A stretch of DNA of 60,348 nucleotides from a virus. Lineage: Duplodnaviria > Caudoviricetes. Shown in pieces: positions 9,595 through 22,100 of this stretch. Each line of letters begins with the position of its first letter. Position 1 is the first letter of the stretch. Position numbers and translations under genes: made by a program. The notes beneath the pieces were generated by a model that had not been told where the DNA came from, searched no databases, and saw nothing but the letters and a program-made list of their open reading frames with translations. The stretch is taken from the IMG/VR virus record IMGVR_UViG_3300037755_000377, positions 1-60,348 of that record; one strand, 5' to 3'.

Positions 9595-9824
9595 CTCGTA
9601 AACAGCTTGCAGCCATCGCCTTCCTGGCCGGCGGTTTTCTACTGGCCTTTGTGTTGCTTGTCGGCTGCTACCTGATTGCCGGACTTGTTCTCATGGGCCT
9701 TGCGGGTTTGCTCGCACTGCCGGGGACTTTTTTTCTGTTGATGGTGATGGGGCTGGTTGGGTTCGGCTTGGTGGCCCTCTCGGTCAAGCTTGTGCCGGAA
9801 ACGGCTGATGCCGGTAAGCATTGA
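9591..9824 (+). CDS. small membrane protein
   Basis: Two hydrophobic segments, ATGA coupling. Confidence 0.6.
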   Translation: MTRKQLAAIAFLAGGFLLAFVLLVGCYLIAGLVLMGLAGLLALPGTFFLLMVMGLVGFGLVALSVKLVPETADAGKH

Positions 9825-10158
9825 CCTGCCATTCCCGCCATCAACAAACAATTTGTTTGTGAACAAGAAAAAGGGCGGCCGATACCGAAGCAAGGGTTAC
9901 GAGGCGTGGCGCGCGGAAGCGGGGTGGATTCTTAAATCCCAAAGACCGGAACACATAACGGGGGTGGTCAACGTGACGATCGAGCTAGGAAAACCTGACA
10001 ACCGCAGGCGCGACTTGGACAACCTCAACAAGCCCATCCTGGATTTGTTGGTCGACCACTGGGTGATTGACGATGACAGCATGATTCAGAAGCTCACGAC
10101 AAAGTGGGCGCCGGAATTGATTGGCTGCCGGGTGAGGGTGGAACAGTCAGATGCTTGA
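9808..10158 (+). CDS. rusA: RusA Holliday junction resolvase
   Basis: LPFPPSTNN, RRDLDNLNKPILDLL, IDDDS catalytic motifs. Confidence 0.9.
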   Translation: MPVSIDLPFPPSTNNLFVNKKKGGRYRSKGYEAWRAEAGWILKSQRPEHITGVVNVTIELGKPDNRRRDLDNLNKPILDLLVDHWVIDDDSMIQKLTTKWAPELIGCRVRVEQSDA

Positions 10159-10969
10159 TACCAACTTTTACCGCACGTCAAATAAGAGCTTTTTCTCGTT
10201 AACATGGTTGCCACAGCAGATAGCATTGTGCCGCGACTTCGTGGCCTTCGGCGTCCATGTGAACGGTATTGCGCGCTATTTCGGGTGTGATCCTCGGCGG
10301 GTGGATCGCCTTGCCTACCGCATAGGATGGAAAGTGGCCCGCCAGCGTCGTAGCTGGAACCCGGCCGCAAGAGAACGCTTTCAACGTGGGCTTGAAATAA
10401 TTGCAATGCAAGGCGCCAGCCTGCCGAGTCCACGGCCCCACCGAAAGACGTTCGAGCCCGTCAGCCGGTCCAAAATCAGCAATATCATCTCAAACGATGA
10501 AAGTGCTGATGAGATGGTTGAATTGGCAAAGCATGGATTCAGCCGCGCCGAGATTGCCAGCGTCCTGAACGAAAAGCACGGAACAAAGTTCACGCGAAAT
10601 TCTGTCTGCGGAAAACTACACAGGCTCGGATGGGTTGAAGGCCAGCAACTGACGCAATCTCAATTGGATGAAAAAAAGAGACAGGTTGCCGAGAGGGCAC
10701 GGCAAAAGCGCCGGTTAGCAAGACCGAAAGCCAAACGAGCCCGAACAAATCGCGAGGTGGTGCTTATGGATGCGATGCTGTGCGAGCCGATCGTGGAGAA
10801 TCCCAAGCTGCAATGGAGCAATGACATTACCTCTCTTGAGCATATCAAGCGCGGTCAATGCCGCTTTGTCATTGGCGAACCAAAAGCCGGGATGTTCTGC
10901 GGTGCCAAGTCAATCGTCGGACATTCGTGGTGTCCGCGTCATGCCCGTGCGGTTTATAGGGTGAGCTGA
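10151..10969 (+). CDS. GcrA-family cell-cycle regulator homologue with N-terminal extension
   Basis: GFSRAEIA...TRNSVCGKLHRLG and C-terminal CRFVIGEP...FCG...WCPRHARAVY. Confidence 0.8.
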   Translation: MLDTNFYRTSNKSFFSLTWLPQQIALCRDFVAFGVHVNGIARYFGCDPRRVDRLAYRIGWKVARQRRSWNPAARERFQRGLEIIAMQGASLPSPRPHRKTFEPVSRSKISNIISNDESADEMVELAKHGFSRAEIASVLNEKHGTKFTRNSVCGKLHRLGWVEGQQLTQSQLDEKKRQVAERARQKRRLARPKAKRARTNREVVLMDAMLCEPIVENPKLQWSNDITSLEHIKRGQCRFVIGEPKAGMFCGAKSIVGHSWCPRHARAVYRVS

Positions 10970-11202
10970 TGACACAAGCAGAACACATCCTAAGCCATCT
11001 GAAAAGCAAAGGGCCGATCTCACCTTTGATTGCGCTCAGAGAATACGGCTGCTTTCGCCTTGGCGCGCGTATCTGGGACCTTCGCCGGGATGGATGGCCC
11101 ATCGACCGCGACATGGTTTCAACGGAAACCGGCAAGCGCGTTGCCCTGTACAGGATAGGACCGAGAGAGAAGTGGCCGAGTCGGGGATTAAAAAATGTCT
11201 GA
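10969..11202 (+). CDS. small winged-HTH protein
   Basis: ILSHLKSKGPISPLIALREYGCFRLGARIWDLRRDGWPI. Confidence 0.75.
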   Translation: MTQAEHILSHLKSKGPISPLIALREYGCFRLGARIWDLRRDGWPIDRDMVSTETGKRVALYRIGPREKWPSRGLKNV

Positions 11203-11497
11203 TCATCTTACGGTTGTCGACCAGAAGCTAGAACATCAGATACGAGCGACGCAACCCGGAATGGCACACTGGGCCGGCAGCGGCCCACCCTTGAAGACGT
11301 GCCGAGAGTGCGTGTTCTTCGAGAACAATGGTTTCTATGCGCGCAACGGCAAACATAGGGGCGCTTTACAGCCGGGGCGGTGCAAGAAATACCAAGCGAT
11401 GATGCAAGGAAGAGCCGGCAACAAAATCGACCATTGGCTATCGTCCTGCAAATATTACAAAGCCAATGAAAACCCCCCGGCAATGTTTGATAAATGA
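11195..11497 (+). CDS. Cys-rich hypothetical protein
   Basis: TCRECVFF...CKKY...CKYY. Confidence 0.65.
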   Translation: MSDHLTVVDQKLEHQIRATQPGMAHWAGSGPPLKTCRECVFFENNGFYARNGKHRGALQPGRCKKYQAMMQGRAGNKIDHWLSSCKYYKANENPPAMFDK

Positions 11498-11526
11498 CCA
11501 GCGGTCGGTTCCTGTGATGACGGGGA

Positions 11527-11874
11527 ATGCCCATGAACAACGTCGTTGAGATAACACGTCAGGCGCCGGCCAAAGATTCTTTCGAGGAATTTTGGTGGCA
11601 TTATCCCGCCGTGCGCCGGCAGCAAAAAGCGCTCTGCAAGGTCAAGTGGGATGCCATCACCGGCCCCGGCATGCAAACGAAAATGTTTGACAAGGATTCC
11701 GATGCCTACGTTGAGATATTTTTGCAGGCAACCCCTGATGAGATCATATCCGGCGTGAAGCGCTACAGCGAGCGAATGAAAGACCCAAAGGGCCGGTACG
11801 GCTCATTTAAGGATGACGGCAGGTTTATCTGCTCAGCGGCTGTGTTCCTGAATCAAGGTCGTTGGTTAGACTAA
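11527..11874 (+). CDS. stand-alone C-terminal domain of a phage replication initiator/replisome organiser
   Basis: FEEFWWHYP...K...W and FICSAAVFLNQGRWLD motifs; no N-terminal HTH. Confidence 0.6.
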   Translation: MPMNNVVEITRQAPAKDSFEEFWWHYPAVRRQQKALCKVKWDAITGPGMQTKMFDKDSDAYVEIFLQATPDEIISGVKRYSERMKDPKGRYGSFKDDGRFICSAAVFLNQGRWLD

Positions 11875-11903
11875 CTGACACCAAAAATTGAGAGCACCAC
11901 TAG

Positions 11904-12698
11904 ATGTTGACAGAAACTAAAATTGAAAAGCCCACGAAGCCTCTCGGCATGAAAGCCTACGGCTCCATTGGCCATCTTCCATGCTCTCGCATCGGCTCCG
12001 GCGATCACTTTGTTCATGATGGCCAGCAGGCAATCTGCACTGTGAAACCGCGTAAGGGTGATCGCATCATCGTCTCCGAAAAATTGGACGGGGCGTGCAT
12101 GTCCGTTGCAAATATTGATGGTGAATTGGTGGCACTTAGCCGCGCCGGCTATCGTGCACGCGACGCGCTTTACGAACATTTGAAACTTTTCGATAGCTAT
12201 GTGGACGAGAACATTCACCAATTTGATGGGCTGCTTGTTCCCGGCGAACGTATTGTTGGGGAATGGCTGGGGATTGCGCACGGGACACTCTACAATAGAA
12301 CTAACCCGTTTTTCTCACCGTTCGTGGCCTTCGACATCTTCCGCGACGGCAAGCGTATCCTGATGGATGAATTTGATCACCGTGTAACGAAGGTCGGAAT
12401 CAGCCGCGCTTTCCATCTCCACGATGGGCCGGATGCGTGCACAGTAGACTATGCGCTCAGCAGCCTCGATATGCCAACACATGAAGGGCAATTACAATAC
12501 GGTTACCACGGCGCGTTGGAACCAGTTGAAGGGGCCGTCTGGCGTGTAGAGCGCGATGGTCTCGTCGACTTCCTTGCGAAGTTCGTTCGCCACGAAAAGA
12601 TTGATGGCAAGTACCTGCCAAATATCAGCAATGTGGAACCTATCTGGCATTGGCATGCCAAGCCGGTCAACAGCACAGCTATAACTGGAGAAACATGA
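11904..12698 (+). CDS. ATP-dependent RNA ligase family protein
   Basis: Motif I SEKLDG, GEW, AFDI, EGAVWR, terminal K motif; no OB domain. Confidence 0.8.
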   Translation: MLTETKIEKPTKPLGMKAYGSIGHLPCSRIGSGDHFVHDGQQAICTVKPRKGDRIIVSEKLDGACMSVANIDGELVALSRAGYRARDALYEHLKLFDSYVDENIHQFDGLLVPGERIVGEWLGIAHGTLYNRTNPFFSPFVAFDIFRDGKRILMDEFDHRVTKVGISRAFHLHDGPDACTVDYALSSLDMPTHEGQLQYGYHGALEPVEGAVWRVERDGLVDFLAKFVRHEKIDGKYLPNISNVEPIWHWHAKPVNSTAITGET

Positions 12699-12702
12699 GA
12701 TG

Positions 12703-12783
12703 AAATTGCCCGGCGCAGGTTGTGAGACCTGGCCGGGCTAACAAGGGCCAAGACTTGAAGGAACGAGCCCTGTTGAAGTAACT
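12703..12783 (-). ncRNA. putative ~80-nt counter-transcribed RNA with two stem-loops
   Basis: Minus-strand promoter TTGACA(12812-12817)-N17-TAGATA(12789-12794); stems 12740-12748/12767-12774 and 12708-12720/12727-12738. Confidence 0.55.
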
Positions 12784-12822
12784 CGCTATATCTATACGAA
12801 CATAGCGGTACTGTCAACTAAA

Positions 12823-13222
12823 TGTGGTTCCAGCCCGGTAGAAAAATGCCGATTGAGCGGTCTAAGTCGAAGAAAGCCGAAGGTTGGCCGCGAGCCTATC
12901 TATCGCGGAAAAGGCTGGCTCTGTCGCGCCCTGACAACCAGCGCCCATACGGGACGGGCAACCCCCGGACGGTACGAAGGCGGGCCAGTATGTCGGCCGA
13001 GTTGGCGACTTGGAACCATGCTAGTCTGTTGTGGCGCCGAAGAATGCCACTGGAGGAACTTGCGGGGACAACGCGAGGCCGGCCGAGAGGTCGGGGAGCA
13101 GGACTGAGTACTCGAACAACGTTCTATTGGTTGTTTCCTCTTAGCCAGAGGCTTCCGGCGGCAAACAGCCCATACCGGAGGGAGGAAAAGGGCGGAGCTA
13201 TGGGAATAGTTACAAACCATAG
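12823..13222 (+). ncRNA. large structured element (candidate ncRNA or origin)
   Basis: Long-range helix 12823-12832/13011-13020, multi-way junction 13023-13105, GNRA loops; overlapping ORFs look non-coding. Confidence 0.5.
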
Positions 13223-13286
13223 GGATTCATAGGATGACATTTGAAATATTTAACCAGTCGAGTCTCTCAAATAGAGGCTATCAGAA

Positions 13287-13523
13287 TTGGTAAAGTTCAC
13301 ACAAATGTATGAAGGTAGAGCTGGGTGGACGGAATGGATTCATCCATCGCCTGGATATCTCATGAAGTGCTGCGACTGTGGGCTAGTACACGAGGTTCAG
13401 TTCCGAGCTTTCGTTGAGACAAAACAGAACAAGCGCCGCAAGACATTCGAGGTTGTTGATCTGCCATGGCCGGTTAGGGTCAAATTCAGAGCGCGTCGGC
13501 TGCGCAAAAAGCGAGGCCGGTAG
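13287..13523 (+). CDS. small Zn-ribbon-like protein
   Basis: KCCDCGLVH motif. Confidence 0.65.
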   Translation: MVKFTQMYEGRAGWTEWIHPSPGYLMKCCDCGLVHEVQFRAFVETKQNKRRKTFEVVDLPWPVRVKFRARRLRKKRGR

Positions 13524-14117
13524 ATGGCAAAGACCCGTAGCAAATCAGGTCCTGTTACCGTCGCCTCGATCAATCGGACGCTGAGGCTTGCGGAAATGGA
13601 AGCCGCCGAGAAGGGCAATCCCGGAACCGGGGCAACCATTCTGCGGCTAAGGGGTGGTCAATCAAGCCCCATCGGCCGCATGGTGGATGCTGGCAAGATC
13701 GGCCCCGAGGGGCTATCGGCCGCTACCGAGATCGAAGAGGCGTTCAGTGCCATCACGAACGCGTTGTGGATCAGGCCAATTTCCATGGAGCGGCAGGATC
13801 GAAGCTATGGGTTCGGCGAGCCTGAGCGAATTGCCAACATCCTGGGAATATACCGAAAGTGGGCCGATTATTGGTCTGTTGCCAAAAAACAATATGGGTG
13901 TTTCGTGCTGCCCATGACCATTGGTGCTGTCATTGACTGGCGCTCGCCTCGCGATATGTGCGGGCAATACGGGGTGAGGTTCCACCGTTGCGAGCAGGCA
14001 ATCGTCACCGGGCTGATGGACTATGCCCGCCGCGCCGGCTGGTTGACGCGGGGCCAAGAGACCACATGGCTAGAGCGGGCAACGACGTTGACCACAACAG
14101 CTAGGGGGTTGACTTGA
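13524..14117 (+). CDS. putative late-gene regulator (Q-position protein)
   Basis: Last early-right gene, directly upstream of a strong promoter; C-terminal HTH-like segment. Confidence 0.5.
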   Translation: MAKTRSKSGPVTVASINRTLRLAEMEAAEKGNPGTGATILRLRGGQSSPIGRMVDAGKIGPEGLSAATEIEEAFSAITNALWIRPISMERQDRSYGFGEPERIANILGIYRKWADYWSVAKKQYGCFVLPMTIGAVIDWRSPRDMCGQYGVRFHRCEQAIVTGLMDYARRAGWLTRGQETTWLERATTLTTTARGLT

Positions 14118-14142
14118 CATATGAAACAGAAGTGCATAGTAA
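14114..14142 (+). promoter_or_regulatory. late promoter (PR'-like)
   Basis: TTGACA-N17-TAGTAA upstream of the tRNA. Confidence 0.65.
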
Positions 14143-14182
14143 TTACTAGTTACTCGTGTTGCGGGAAAATCCCAACAATTTC

Positions 14183-14258
14183 GCCGCTGTAGCTCAATGG
14201 CAGAGCAGCCGCCCTGTAAGCGGCAGGTTGGCGGTTCGAGCCCGGCCCAGCGGCTCCA
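14183..14258 (+). tRNA. tRNA-Thr(UGU), atypical
   Basis: GCCGCTG/CAGCGGC acceptor, GCTC/GAGC D-arm, GCCGC-CCTGTAA-GCGGC anticodon arm, TTCGAGC T-loop, encoded CCA; C at position 33 and a bulged G in the T-stem. Confidence 0.85.
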
Positions 14259-14397
14259 CCGACAATCTGTCGGTCAAGTAGCTTGATATTTTAATTGCGG
14301 CTCGTGGACTGGCCCTAGATAACCGGGAAAGCAGCTGCCCGAAACGGTCGGAGGTTTAGCAAACCCCGGCCGTTTCCACTTTGAGGGACGATCCCGT

Positions 14398-14670
14398 ATG
14401 ACCCGTGACGAACTCCAGAAGTTTCGCGACTGGGCTGATGCCAAACTGGCGGCTGGTCAAGAGCCTCCATGGGCTTGGTATCAATACATGAAACTCCGCG
14501 AGACCCTGGATGCCATCATTGGCGGGACCGATGCTGCTACGCCGCAAACGGGAAATTCACTGCAATCGGCAGCACATCAGGGAAGGCGTCTCCAACTAGT
14601 GGATGCCACGTATCAGCGAGATAGCGCTCAACACCATCAAGCTGATGCGCAGGTACAGCTGCCCATGTGA
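14398..14670 (+). CDS. hypothetical protein
   Basis: RBS GAGGGA; protein-like N-terminus GQEPPWAWYQYMKLRETLD. Confidence 0.6.
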   Translation: MTRDELQKFRDWADAKLAAGQEPPWAWYQYMKLRETLDAIIGGTDAATPQTGNSLQSAAHQGRRLQLVDATYQRDSAQHHQADAQVQLPM

Positions 14671-14877: not shown

Positions 14878-15087
14878 TTATCCTGGGAAGTTCGCAAATT
14901 GGTGAGCGAAACTCTTGGCTCGCCTCATGGCGCAATCTGATTGCTCGCTTTCGGTGCCATTATTGGGCACGAGAACAGAGATAGTCATTTGTTCAATGGG
15001 GCCGTCTAATTCGACCGATATATTGACCAAGACATTGGCGTCTGTCGGAATTGGCCCTTGGCCAACGATTTTGCTGCTAATTTTCAC
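14878..15087 (-). CDS. small hypothetical protein (moron)
   Basis: GTG start VKISSKIVGQGP...; protein-like composition. Confidence 0.5.
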   Translation of the reverse strand: MKISSKIVGQGPIPTDANVLVNISVELDGPIEQMTISVLVPNNGTESEQSDCAMRRAKSFAHQFANFPG

Positions 15088-15124
15088 CTGCGAGGTTTCC
15101 CCCGCAGGCGTAGCGTTCCGCGCT

Positions 15125-15211
15125 TTATCGGCGCGGAAGTGACCGCATATGGGCGCGCACCAATTCAATGCGCCCATAGCGGATGCGGTAGTACTCGCAA
15201 ACGAACACCAT
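15125..15211 (-). CDS. 28-aa Arg-rich micropeptide
   Basis: MVFVCEYYRIRYGRIELVRAHMRSLPRR with strong RBS AGAGGAG. Confidence 0.6.
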   Translation of the reverse strand: MVFVCEYYRIRYGRIELVRAHMRSLPRR

Positions 15212-15455
15212 CGCGGGTGCTCCTCTAGTGGAGCGGCCACGCGGTATCGAATTGTCCTGAAGTCGGCCTGTCAAAGCGGCAACGGGACAAGATCGAACCC
15301 ACGAGGTCGCAGGTTGTGATGATCTGTCACGCCGTTGCCGTGCGCTGTTCGCGCATTGGTGGCGGCGGTAAAGCGTGGGGTTCGGCTTAATACCGAATCT
15401 CACGCTTATTGCATTCTAGGCGGGAATCGGACCCATGACAAGAGCCACGTGGCGG

Positions 15456-20337: not shown

Positions 20338-20530
20338 CTCCTACATCATTGTTTACCCTGATGGGAGGCAAATGGATAGGAAGCGCAGAAAGTTGGAACT
20401 TGAACTTAGGTTGGTTCAGGCTTGGCTTGATGCTAGCCCGACAGGTAAAAGTCATGAATTCATTCCTGCAACAGATTTGATGTTGCAAGATGCAACAGGC
20501 CATGCTAGACAGCAATTGCCTGTGGCGTAG
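20330..20530 (+). CDS. possible small hypothetical protein
   Basis: Overlaps the terL stop, but its 3' half covers the Y RNA promoter. Confidence 0.3.
   Translation: MISSYIIVYPDGRQMDRKRRKLELELRLVQAWLDASPTGKSHEFIPATDLMLQDATGHARQQLPVA
20467..20511 (+). promoter_or_regulatory. promoter and palindromic operator of the Yrl/Ro60 operon
   Basis: TTGCAA(20483-88)-N17-TAGACA(20506-11); TGTTGCA-AGA-TGCAACA (20481-97) plus a third half-site at 20467-73. Confidence 0.7.
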
Positions 20531-20577
20531 GGCGCGGTTACTTCTTGCAGAATGAAAGTCCGCATCCGCTTGTTCCC
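20522..20577 (+). ncRNA. short Y RNA-like RNA (no tRNA domain)
   Basis: Shares GTGGCGTAG..GCGGTTACTTC and CCGC..CGCYTGTTCCC ends with the adjacent YrlA-like RNA. Confidence 0.7.
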
Positions 20578-20600
20578 AGGCGCCCGATAGGGTGGAATTC

Positions 20601-20719
20601 GTGGCGTAGATAGCGGTTACTTCCTTCAGATGGATGAGGTCGTAGGTTCAAGTCCTACCGGGGCGTAAGCTCTGTAGCTCAGTTGGTAGAGCGCATTGTG
20701 TCCGCAATCGCCTGTTCCC
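20601..20719 (+). ncRNA. yrlA: YrlA-like Y RNA with circularly permuted tRNA-mimic domain
   Basis: Variable loop AGGTC, T-arm GTAGG-TTCAAGT-CCTAC, acceptor stem CGGGGC-GTAA-GCTCTG closed by a tetraloop, then D-arm GCTC-AGTTGGTA-GAGC; upstream of Ro60. Confidence 0.85.
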
Positions 20720-20768
20720 GGATTCCGCCCTATCGGGTGTCGCCACGGGCTTTCAATGGAGAAAGCCC

Positions 20769-22100
20769 ATGCGCTTGAATGTCAAGTCTGTTGCCCCTCA
20801 CGGATATACCCATGAGGGAGCACCTGCGGCACCGATCAACGCTGAGCAGGCGTTGCGCCGTTCGGTTATGTCATGCCTGCTTTGGGAATCGGAATTCTAT
20901 GAGGATGGCGAGGATATCGCCGCCCGCATTGTCAGGCTCGCCGGCACGCTTCCGGCTTCCAAGGTTTCCGCACTCGCAATCGAGGCGCGTGAGCGCGGCA
21001 ATCTACGTCATGTTCCGCTCTTGCTTTTGTCCGCGCTCGCCAAAATCGGCAAGGGCGACAAGATCGTCGCGGATACGATTGAGCGCGTTATCCAGCGCGC
21101 GGATGAACTTTCTGAATTGCTGGCGGTTCACGCCAAGGCAAACGGCGTCAAGCCTGGCGAGGTTAAAAAGAAGATTCCGGCTCAGATGAAAAAGGGCCTT
21201 GCTCGCGCGTTCACCAAGTTCAATGAATACGCACTCGGCAAATATGATCGGGACGGCGCTGTGCGGCTTCGCGATGTGCTGTTCATGGTGCACGCCAAGC
21301 CGAAGGATCACGAACAGGCGGCGCTCTGGAAGCGATTGGTGGCCAACGAATTGACCGTGCCCGATACGTGGGAGGTCCAGATTTCCGGCGGCGCCGACAA
21401 GAAGGAAACTTTCGAGCGGCTGATCCGCGAAGGCAAGCTCGGCTATCTCGCGTTGCTGCGCAATCTGCGCAACATGGCGGAAGCCGGGTGTGATCCTGAC
21501 CTTGTGAAATTGGCTATCGTCGCCCGCAAGGGCGGTGCGCAACGGGTGTTGCCGTTCCGCTACATCGCGGCGGCCCGCGCTGCACCGCAGTTTGAGCCCG
21601 CCATTGATCAGGCATTGTGCGAAGCCATCGGCGAACTGCCTATCTTGCCGGGCAAGACTGCGATCCTGATCGATGTGTCTGGATCAATGGATGAACGGCT
21701 GTCCGCCAAGTCGGACATGAAACGAATCGACGCGGCGGCTGGCCTTGGCGCTATCTGGCCTGGCGATGTGCGTATGTTCACGTTCTCGCAGAAGGTTGTG
21801 GAAGTTCCTCCCCGTCGCGGCATGGCAGGCGTTGATGCCATCGCACGTTTCCAGCCGCACGGCGGAACCTATCTTGGACAGGCGGTGCAAGCGTTAAACG
21901 CCCAAGTGCCGTACGATCGCCTTATCGTGATCACCGATGAGCAGTCGCATGACCGCGTGGCAGACCCGCTGCATGGCCGCGCTTACATGATAAACGTCGC
22001 GAGCGCACAGCGCGGTGTTGGCTACGGAAAATGGAACCATATCGACGGTTTCTCGGAAGGCATTCTGCGATTCATACATGAGTTTGAGAATGACCGCTGA
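20769..22100 (+). CDS. rsr: Ro60/Rsr TROVE-domain RNA-binding protein with vWA domain
   Basis: THEGAPA start, ALLRNLRNM, RVLPFRY, MIDAS DVSGSM, GGT, ITDEQ, IDGFSE. Confidence 0.93.
   Translation: MRLNVKSVAPHGYTHEGAPAAPINAEQALRRSVMSCLLWESEFYEDGEDIAARIVRLAGTLPASKVSALAIEARERGNLRHVPLLLLSALAKIGKGDKIVADTIERVIQRADELSELLAVHAKANGVKPGEVKKKIPAQMKKGLARAFTKFNEYALGKYDRDGAVRLRDVLFMVHAKPKDHEQAALWKRLVANELTVPDTWEVQISGGADKKETFERLIREGKLGYLALLRNLRNMAEAGCDPDLVKLAIVARKGGAQRVLPFRYIAAARAAPQFEPAIDQALCEAIGELPILPGKTAILIDVSGSMDERLSAKSDMKRIDAAAGLGAIWPGDVRMFTFSQKVVEVPPRRGMAGVDAIARFQPHGGTYLGQAVQALNAQVPYDRLIVITDEQSHDRVADPLHGRAYMINVASAQRGVGYGKWNHIDGFSEGILRFIHEFENDR

Follow-up and report, generated by a model that had tools for sequence, protein, structure and literature searches.

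The virus record IMGVR_UViG_3300037755_000377 is a temperate phage, represented by a complete genome of 60,348 bases (CheckV 100%) from a sediment metagenome; the whole of this stretch was analysed and is referred to as the window. Between the early genes and the terminase genes of the phage lies an element, with its conserved core at 12856–13208 on the plus strand, that very probably belongs to a real RNA family not catalogued before. The family consists of 13 sequences: the window, 11 IMG/VR contigs and one bacterial genome (G373). As to its function, the RNA is tentatively read as a leader or riboregulator that acts in cis on the transcript running from the early genes to the packaging genes. 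A first-pass annotation had described 11527–13222 as a possible RNA-controlled replication origin, composed of an initiator domain without its DNA-binding head (F0, 11527–11874), a minus-strand antisense RNA and a folded element of about 400 nucleotides (nt).

An alignment (A3) of 13 members of the F0 family retrieved 39 IMG/VR loci. Locus L048 gave an nhmmer match to window positions 12937–13208 (E 1.2e-13) directly behind its F0 homologue, with no ligase gene between the two, and a two-sequence profile identified the copy in G373 (E 4.3e-10). The motif CGGGCAAYCCCCGGA(N)CGGT is found in 11 IMG/VR stretches, all of which are true members by profile and one of which is the L048 contig; the 10 further loci match with E values from 2e-15 to 5e-47. 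The nhmmer profile to which the window core is matched in Table 1 was built from the 13 sequences, the window included. The covariance model CM R1, a 120-position sub-model with an effective sequence number of 3.2, matches the window at 12941–13057 with 81.4 bits by construction. Two other leads were set aside. The pattern CTTAGCCAGRRGCTN{4,25}CATACCG returned two loci, of which L083 was confirmed by neither the profile nor the covariance model, and short matches at query positions 368–404 in bacterial genomes look like chance GC-rich matches.

The case for an RNA is made by compensatory change. RNAalifold applied to 11 full-length cores, an alignment that leaves out the truncated copies L092 and L094, predicted 49 pairs, 27 of which show compensatory changes as compared to 14.5 ± 2.3 in shuffled alignments. 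Pairing is retained in 92.9% of the alignment cells (77.5 ± 1.0 in shuffles) with a covariation score of 0.467 (0.168 in shuffles), and none of 500 shuffles reached the observed value for any of these three measures. When the pairing partner was slid by 1–3 columns, 9–13 compensatory pairs and scores of 0.07–0.11 were obtained. Since the structure was derived from the same alignment, it is somewhat favored by these comparisons, although the margin is large. Among the eight main-group sequences, a set that leaves out the divergent window, L082 and L085 along with the truncated L092 and L094, 36 of 85 predicted pairs are compensatory. Covariation across related phages, which the first-pass annotation had suggested looking for, is thus strong in the 11 related sequences.

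The mismatches also reveal the strand. Among 539 cells, 34 are G.U as compared to six that are A.C, and one G.U pair, which closes the helix formed by 13114–19 and 13131–36, is invariant. The excess of G.U over A.C and the invariant G.U pair point to an RNA of the gene-sense strand and not to DNA. A site that functions at the DNA level, such as a cos or pac packaging site, a protein-binding array or a recombination site with palindromes that mimic RNA helices, would suit a location upstream of the terminase genes, and four IMG/VR contigs end in the element or less than 100 nt from it. Such a site would, however, treat both strands alike, and neither compensatory helices formed between segments 230 nt apart nor contig ends at differing positions are readily accommodated; this explanation is very unlikely. 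The contigs concerned (L091, L092, L093 and L094) begin or end inside the element or within approximately 100 nt of it, and their differing end positions are likely assembly breaks at sequence shared among co-occurring phages.

Most members of the family are approximately 460 nt long and start with AGAAUAAGGG directly past the stop codon of the gene before it. In the window copy, the 3' 350 nt are retained and the 5' part is replaced by two phage-specific hairpins. The core may be considered in terms of local hairpins and the long-range helices that close it (Table 1). Four of the five pairs of the invariant hairpin at 12954–12968 do not vary in 11 sequences. Helices 3 and 5 are paired in 93.9% and 95.5% of cells, respectively, with two compensatory pairs in helix 3, where the window copy carries two mismatches. 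Helices 10 and 11 are paired in every cell (100%), and compensatory changes are present in five of six and three of four of their pairs. In addition, 35 columns are invariant in the 13 sequences, many of them unpaired or loop nucleotides.

Folding energy would not have identified the element. The 400-nt fold at 12823–13222 emphasized in the first-pass annotation is unexceptional (z-score −1.29 on the plus strand, a value equalled or bettered by 9 of 100 shuffles; +0.51 on the minus strand), the 300-nt stretch 12901–13200 has a z-score of about 0, and the junction at 13021–13110 reaches −2.10 with 7 of 200 shuffles as good. What remains of that fold is the conserved structured RNA at 12856–13208. 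The predicted hairpins at 13031–50, 13059–77 and 13079–94 coincide with hairpins of the family, whereas the closing helix 12823–32/13011–20 is not conserved: part of it falls outside the core, and it is incompatible with a hairpin that covaries.

A segment near the 3' end, D, is shared by two helices that are mutually exclusive. The long-range helix between B and D is paired in 93.9% of cells and has two compensatory pairs; the helix between C and D is paired in 85.7% of cells and has three, compared to 0.7 ± 0.7 in shuffles (7 of 500). In L048, L090 and L092, the three segments B, C and D have changed in concert. Since both helices are kept by compensatory changes, two alternative folds are suggested.

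The 3' end of the element resembles a translation start. Of the 12 members with a retained 3' end, 10 have the motif GAAAAGGG, followed after 6–7 nt by AUG (...CUAUG); L092 is without it, and L082 was missed by the script and reads CUGUG in alignment A5. The open reading frame (ORF) behind the AUG spans 2–25 codons in seven of the 10 members with the motif, is longer in two and is cut by the end of the locus in one. With such short frames, the conserved AUG was rejected as a gene start for most members. In several members, this short frame, which is not conserved, adjoins or runs into the next gene. RNAalifold also pairs a 5'-proximal CCCU with the AGGG of the Shine-Dalgarno-like tract.

A 136-amino acid (aa) ORF at 12822–13232 covers the window copy, and a protein-coding or decayed gene was considered as an alternative to an RNA. 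While 136 codons is a rather high number in 590 nt with a GC content of 55%, homologue and family searches identified no conserved protein in this interval: there is no homologue among 5.8 billion clusters and no Pfam or PHROG match in eight frames of the region. The codon score of −0.084 bits per codon is in the range of shadow ORFs (mean −0.117) and below all 18 confident genes, the GC content by codon position (0.55/0.61/0.60) is atypical when compared to roughly 0.6/0.45/0.65 in real genes, and relatives carry stops and indels in the frame. A coding origin is barely credible, and the annotation was corrected to mark the ORF as spurious.

The element is on the same strand as the neighboring genes, between an early module and the terminase genes. 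Encoded upstream are RusA, GcrA-like proteins, DNA methyltransferases, a D5-like regulator and F0. Beyond the element come variable small ORFs, a protein of PHROG-15385 and, at +0.4 to +4.8 kb, the terminase genes: the large subunit is 1.2–4.8 kb downstream in seven loci, and in L082 a small-subunit match is 0.4 kb downstream. The upstream ORFs of L086 and L089 end 1 nt before the element, leaving no room for a promoter of its own there. The next plus-strand ORF starts 6–15 nt past the element in L087, L089, L090 and L094. In the window, the AT-richer gap before the next gene (13224–13270) contains two GANTC sites by eye (GATTC and GAGTC). Given the GcrA-like gene of the phage and the methyltransferase genes beside the elements of its relatives, a methylation-dependent promoter in this gap is conceivable.

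The sense-strand position in a string of genes, the lack of room for a promoter, the early/packaging boundary, the 3' end that is similar to a ribosome-binding site and the exclusive covarying helices together make a cis-acting leader the best guess. The element would be a long leader within a transcript extending from the early genes to those on the packaging side. The purine-rich segment D (CGUGAAGGC type) would pair with either of the pyrimidine-rich segments B or C to give two alternative folds, and the fold chosen would set the accessibility of the start site, and with it translation of or read-through into the genes behind.

Several observations weigh against this model. There are only 13 sequences in the family (effective number 3.2), and both helices of the proposed switch were read off MAFFT alignments that were not refined by hand. 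A further alternative pairing, between A and B, has almost no compensatory support, and the pairing that would mask the Shine-Dalgarno-like tract is invariant and thus without covariation. Neither a sense-strand promoter nor an intrinsic terminator was called in the three members scanned (L087, L089 and L048). The downstream genes are non-homologous between members, which leaves no regulated gene that all of them share. The short ORF of the window copy stops 55 nt short of the next gene, so the coupling that may operate in L090 or L087 cannot work there. The sequencing runs listed for the region comprise 11 of DNA and none of RNA. Four of these DNA runs gave near-identical contigs of low depth with one difference inside the element (12989 T>C), and hence no usable variation.

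The conserved unpaired nucleotides and the size of about 460 nt fit a trans-acting ribonucleoprotein (RNP) or ribozyme at least as well. Under this alternative, the element would be a large non-coding RNA that works as the RNA component of an RNP, as a ribozyme or as a decoy against some host function. It would be released by processing of the early-to-late transcript or have an internal promoter, like the orphan "ornate" phage RNAs. The 85 predicted pairs with multi-branch long-range helices would agree with such a molecule, as would neighbors that vary on both sides with no link to one regulated gene. By eye, an AU-rich hairpin resembling a −10 box (TAnnAT type) is located about 100 nt into the main-group element, where homology to the window begins. 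On the other hand, the promoter scan of the three members returned nothing, there is no sense terminator at the 3' end, that end is like a ribosome-binding site with an AUG, and no conserved partner protein is encoded next to the element. A trans-acting RNA or RNP is therefore possible though somewhat improbable; it is nearly as likely as the cis-acting leader and likelier than the replication origin.

The proposed replication origin would combine a structured primer or scaffold RNA with an organiser that lacks a DNA-binding head, the pair being checked by a short antisense RNA that would end at the 5'-edge hairpin; the phage transcript would mark the site at which the host replisome is loaded. 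F0 matches phrog_270, "replication initiation protein" (E 1.1e-8), over profile positions 171–248 of 383. A search limited to longer proteins identified 61 relatives of 204–361 aa, and F0 aligns over 86–100% of its own length to their C-terminal part. In 22 of these an N-terminal Pfam domain was found, which was PF19808 in 10, PF13730 in five, PF07120 in three, PF09681 in three and PF14297 in one (PF09681 is Phage_rep_org_N and PF07120 is DUF1376 as named in the genome search); some of these are of the organiser type. F0 itself has no Pfam match and no PDB sequence match. Its AlphaFold (AF2) model has a predicted local distance difference test (pLDDT) score of 90, yet Foldseek found no PDB match at E ≤ 0.001. 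Thirteen relatives of 105–115 aa were found with 97–98% coverage. Being of the same size class, they indicate that F0 was not truncated but represents a conserved family of stand-alone proteins. Thus, the "headless initiator" of the first-pass annotation is correct in that only a C-terminal organiser module without an N-terminal domain is present, and incorrect in that nothing appears to have been cut away; F0 is now annotated as a stand-alone replisome-organiser C-terminal family.

The lack of other replication genes is in keeping with an unconventional origin. Approximately 100 ORFs of the window were scanned against Pfam or PHROGs, and F0 was the only replication-type match, in agreement with the earlier statement that no full initiator, helicase, primase or polymerase is recognisable; many of the ORFs match no family at all. 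Searches for DnaB_C, Phage_rep_org_N and Prim-Pol, whose positive controls all worked, found none of the three in the window record. The result is the same for five element-bearing records, three of which are at least 95% complete. The genome search with DUF1376 was uninformative as its control gave no signal. By the ORF scans and the three domain searches, then, no canonical initiator was found elsewhere in the genome. The size of the element is also similar to that of ColE1 RNA II.

The association between F0 and the element is, however, loose. F0 is upstream on the same strand in eight of the 13 members. The spacing ranges from about 80 nt in L048 and L090 to about 1900 nt in L094, and the genes that intervene are unrelated. 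F0 is absent from the other five records, which are 54, 98, 42 and 63% complete and, in the last case, a 3.3-Mb genome (positive control 5/5). Conversely, the profile and the covariance model detect no element in the flanks of 38 of the 39 F0 loci. The co-occurrence expected of an initiator domain and its origin is therefore partial at best. Features of an origin are missing as well: the region is not AT-rich (GC 0.537–0.547 across 12–14 kb), the minimum of the cumulative GC skew is near 6–7 kb and not at 12.7–13.3 kb, and there are no iterons, the repeats being only short two- or three-copy chance matches. The HTH_39 protein encoded two genes upstream of F0 (10969–11202) could supply DNA binding as part of a split organiser, in which case an RNA substitute is unneeded. 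With its variable spacing and a 3' end that looks like a translation start, the element is unlikely to be an origin or primer.

The antisense side of the proposal was also only partly borne out. The two hairpins at 12708–12738 and 12771–12816 are well supported, the interval 12695–12830 folding with z-scores of −4.12 on the plus strand and −6.75 on the minus strand. On the minus strand the first hairpin is followed by AAUUUCAU, which makes it terminator-like for antisense transcription. Both L087 and L048 likewise have, at the 5' edge of their elements, a terminator-like hairpin with a U-tail in the antisense orientation, to which the window hairpin is analogous; none was called in L089, and shuffled sequences give about one per region. 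The minus-strand promoter placed at 12817–12789 has a perfect TTGACA at 12816–12811, but its spacer is 15 nt, its second box is TATAGA, it was not called and it is not conserved. This arrangement is outside the rules of the promoter scan, and the stretch that holds it is outside the match to the RNA family profile. No promoter was called at 12699–13290, nor in L087, L089 or L048; all promoter and terminator calls come from simple consensus scans.

Table 1. Coordinates of the RNA element, its helices and the neighboring features in the window.
Feature	Position	Strand	Remarks
Conserved core, window member	12856..13208	+	nhmmer E 8.6e-54, profile positions 108-457 of 458
Hairpin H2	12914-23 with 12934-42	+	7/8 pairs compensatory, 92% of cells paired
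Long-range helices 3 and 5, closing the core	12943-48 with 13178-83; 12970-73 with 13174-77	+	
Invariant hairpin, CCGGG-CAAC-CCCGG type	12954..12968	+	followed by CGGU at 12970-12973
Helix 8, hairpin GUGGC...GCCAC	13031..13050	+	4/6 pairs compensatory; 4/8 in alignment A9
Helices 10 and 11	13114-19 with 13131-36; 13137-40 with 13148-51	+	loop UAGCC (helix 11)
Segment C (CUUCCGG) pairing with segment D (CCGGAGG)	13152-58 with 13175-81	+	
Shine-Dalgarno-like GGAAAAGGG; AUG	13184-92; 13200-02	+	10-codon ORF ending 13232
GC-rich hairpin	12708..12738		just past the ligase stop codon
Second hairpin	12771..12816		holds minus-strand TTGACA-15 nt-TATAGA; specific to the window phage
F0, 115 aa	11527..11874	+	stand-alone homologue of the replisome-organiser-type C-terminal module
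RNA ligase-like nucleotidyltransferase	11904..12698	+	PF09414, phrog_38169
Winged-helix HTH_39 protein	10969-11202		two genes upstream of F0
GcrA-like protein	10151-10969		
RusA	9757-10158		
Tyrosine integrase	232-1380	minus	

Known RNA families do not account for the element. A search of the window with Rfam 15 at the gathering threshold identified only a tRNA at 14183–14255. The Rfam check suggested in the first-pass annotation covered 4227 models and gave no match to the element, including at E ≤ 10, where 11400–14400 returned only a mir-BART1-like hairpin (26.5 bits compared to a gathering score of 70) and the main-group member L087 returned four chance snoRNA or cis-regulatory matches of 11–21 bits. 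Literature searched at the level of abstracts contained no published description of the element. A blastn search against INPHARED phages and a 40-mer search of IMG/VR were without a match, and no close relatives of the ORFs at 13524–14117 and 11527–11874 or of the GcrA gene were found in IMG/VR. Among 401 genomes of one bacterial order BLAST gave a single match, G373, and the motif pattern applied to 401 genomes of the class of G373 retrieved G373 alone; the element is rare among sampled bacterial genomes. This only bacterial copy (L082; G373:C3, 7992–12401) is in a prophage-like stretch, flanked by a minus-strand "DNA repair protein" gene (phrog_10276) and then by a 103-aa ORF, a terminase-small-subunit-like gene and a gene for a 790-aa protein.

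The remaining genes of the window fit the plan of a temperate phage. In addition to the integrase, a Mu Gam-like protein is encoded, the terminase is at 17.1–20.3 kb, and the portal, capsid and tail genes come after. The GcrA-like protein, together with ligase relatives in Methylorubrum, Bosea and Lichenihabitans records, suggests an alphaproteobacterial host, and the RNA family is probably carried by temperate phages or prophages of Alphaproteobacteria. The tRNA mentioned above is a tRNA-Thr(UGU) (14183–14258, 54.3 bits) located some 1 kb past the RNA element; the loci of all 10 relatives of the element that were scanned contain no tRNA gene.

Between F0 and the RNA element, in the window phage only, is an RNA ligase-like gene that the first-pass annotation had overlooked and that has been added to the annotation at 11904–12698. 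It matches PF09414 (E 6.4e-13, 49.6 bits with a cut-off of 27) and phrog_38169 (E 3.4e-43), and an EKLDG sequence, which we take to be the lysine nucleotidyltransferase motif KxDG, is invariant in all five aligned relatives. An RNA linked to this ligase was considered and rejected: none of 33 ligase loci has the element (profile on all, CM R1 on 23 of the 33), and the regions downstream of the ligase are not conserved. The ligase family is well conserved (51–71% identity), with members both in phages and in the prophage-like regions of, among others, Alphaproteobacteria and Planctomycetes. Flavobacterium phages carry a ligase at 42% identity that is annotated "hypothetical", and tRNA genes flank the ligase in loci L019 and L023.

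Two other regions of the window may encode structured RNAs. A Ro60-like gene at 20769–22100 contains TROVE (E 1.1e-10) and VWA domains and matches the "RNA-binding protein" phrog_850 (E 1.1e-51). Situated 45 nt upstream on the same strand is a putative YrlA-like Y RNA (20613–20724; RF02553, E 1.8e-9; its 47.2 bits fall short of the gathering score of 69), and 20500–20770 folds with a z-score of −4.39. The "tRNA-Ser(aga)" called by ARAGORN at 20580–20667 is probably the tRNA-like domain of the YrlA-like RNA, as Rfam scores it as a tRNA with only 24.3 bits, and a second Y-like module may be seen by eye at 20520–20580. Y RNAs beside Ro60 have been reported in 22 phages (PMC4201824). The idea that the element itself belongs to a Ro60/Y RNA system was dropped, with no YrlA-like match in 11400–14400. 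The second region, 14985–15440, has 456 nt with no convincing ORF and approximately ten hairpins in a row (z-score −5.43, none of 100 shuffles as good). No Rfam model matches it, and nothing similar was found in the loci retrieved. The stretch may encode another RNA or act as a site at the DNA level, and as a candidate it looks more origin-like than the 11.5–13.3 kb region.

To our knowledge, bacteria and phages have few known large RNAs (>300 nt) with well-supported structures, and every one of them has started a new line of research. The present family has 13 members with clear compensatory changes, long-range helices and invariant loops, is absent from Rfam 15, and holds a fixed place in the genome plan of a poorly known group of temperate phages. 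If it is a leader, it would be a switch of unusual complexity, placed where phage development passes from early to late. Either a trans-acting or a replicative role would amount to a new RNA function: the former would make the family a new class of large phage RNA, RNP or ribozyme, and the latter would mean that replisome loading is specified by an RNA in temperate phages without a recognisable initiator, helicase or primase.

Of the known systems with which the element may be compared, the nearest to the origin proposal is the ColE1-type plasmid, in which the RNA II pre-primer is controlled by the antisense RNA I. The similarities are a structured sense RNA of a few hundred nt, a replicon without a recognisable initiator, and a possible short antisense RNA over the 5' part (a terminator-like hairpin in two of three members scanned and the window analogue). 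In contrast to ColE1, no promoter was called for the sense or the antisense RNA, no origin features are present, the element ends in a Shine-Dalgarno-like tract and AUG, it occurs without F0, and there is no relation by sequence or Rfam. Replisome organisers with PF09681, PF07120 or PF13730 N-termini resemble F0, which aligns to their C-terminal part and to phrog_270; F0 differs in having no N-terminal domain, in being conserved at 105–115 aa and in a fold without a PDB match.

The PR' leader and 6S RNA of λ and the put RNAs of HK022 serve as leaders or in processive antitermination at the start of late operons in phages; the put RNAs are two stem-loops of about 70 nt just behind a promoter. 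Like them, the element is located on the sense strand between nin-like early genes (RusA) and late or packaging genes and would act in cis on a read-through transcript. It is dissimilar in its length of 350–460 nt, its long-range helices, the absence of a detected promoter or terminator, and the lack of homology. ROOL and GOLLD, described in PMC12286853 as large, intricately folded, phage-linked orphan RNAs of unknown function, share with the element its size, intricate fold and phage or prophage location, but the element has no Rfam match, occurs in other hosts and contexts and has no tRNA genes beside it in 10 of 10 relatives. As compared to riboswitch platforms and translational operators, the element matches no known aptamer, is much larger than usual and precedes genes that are not conserved; what it has in common with them are the mutually exclusive helices that share one strand and a Shine-Dalgarno-like tract that can pair with an upstream CCCU.

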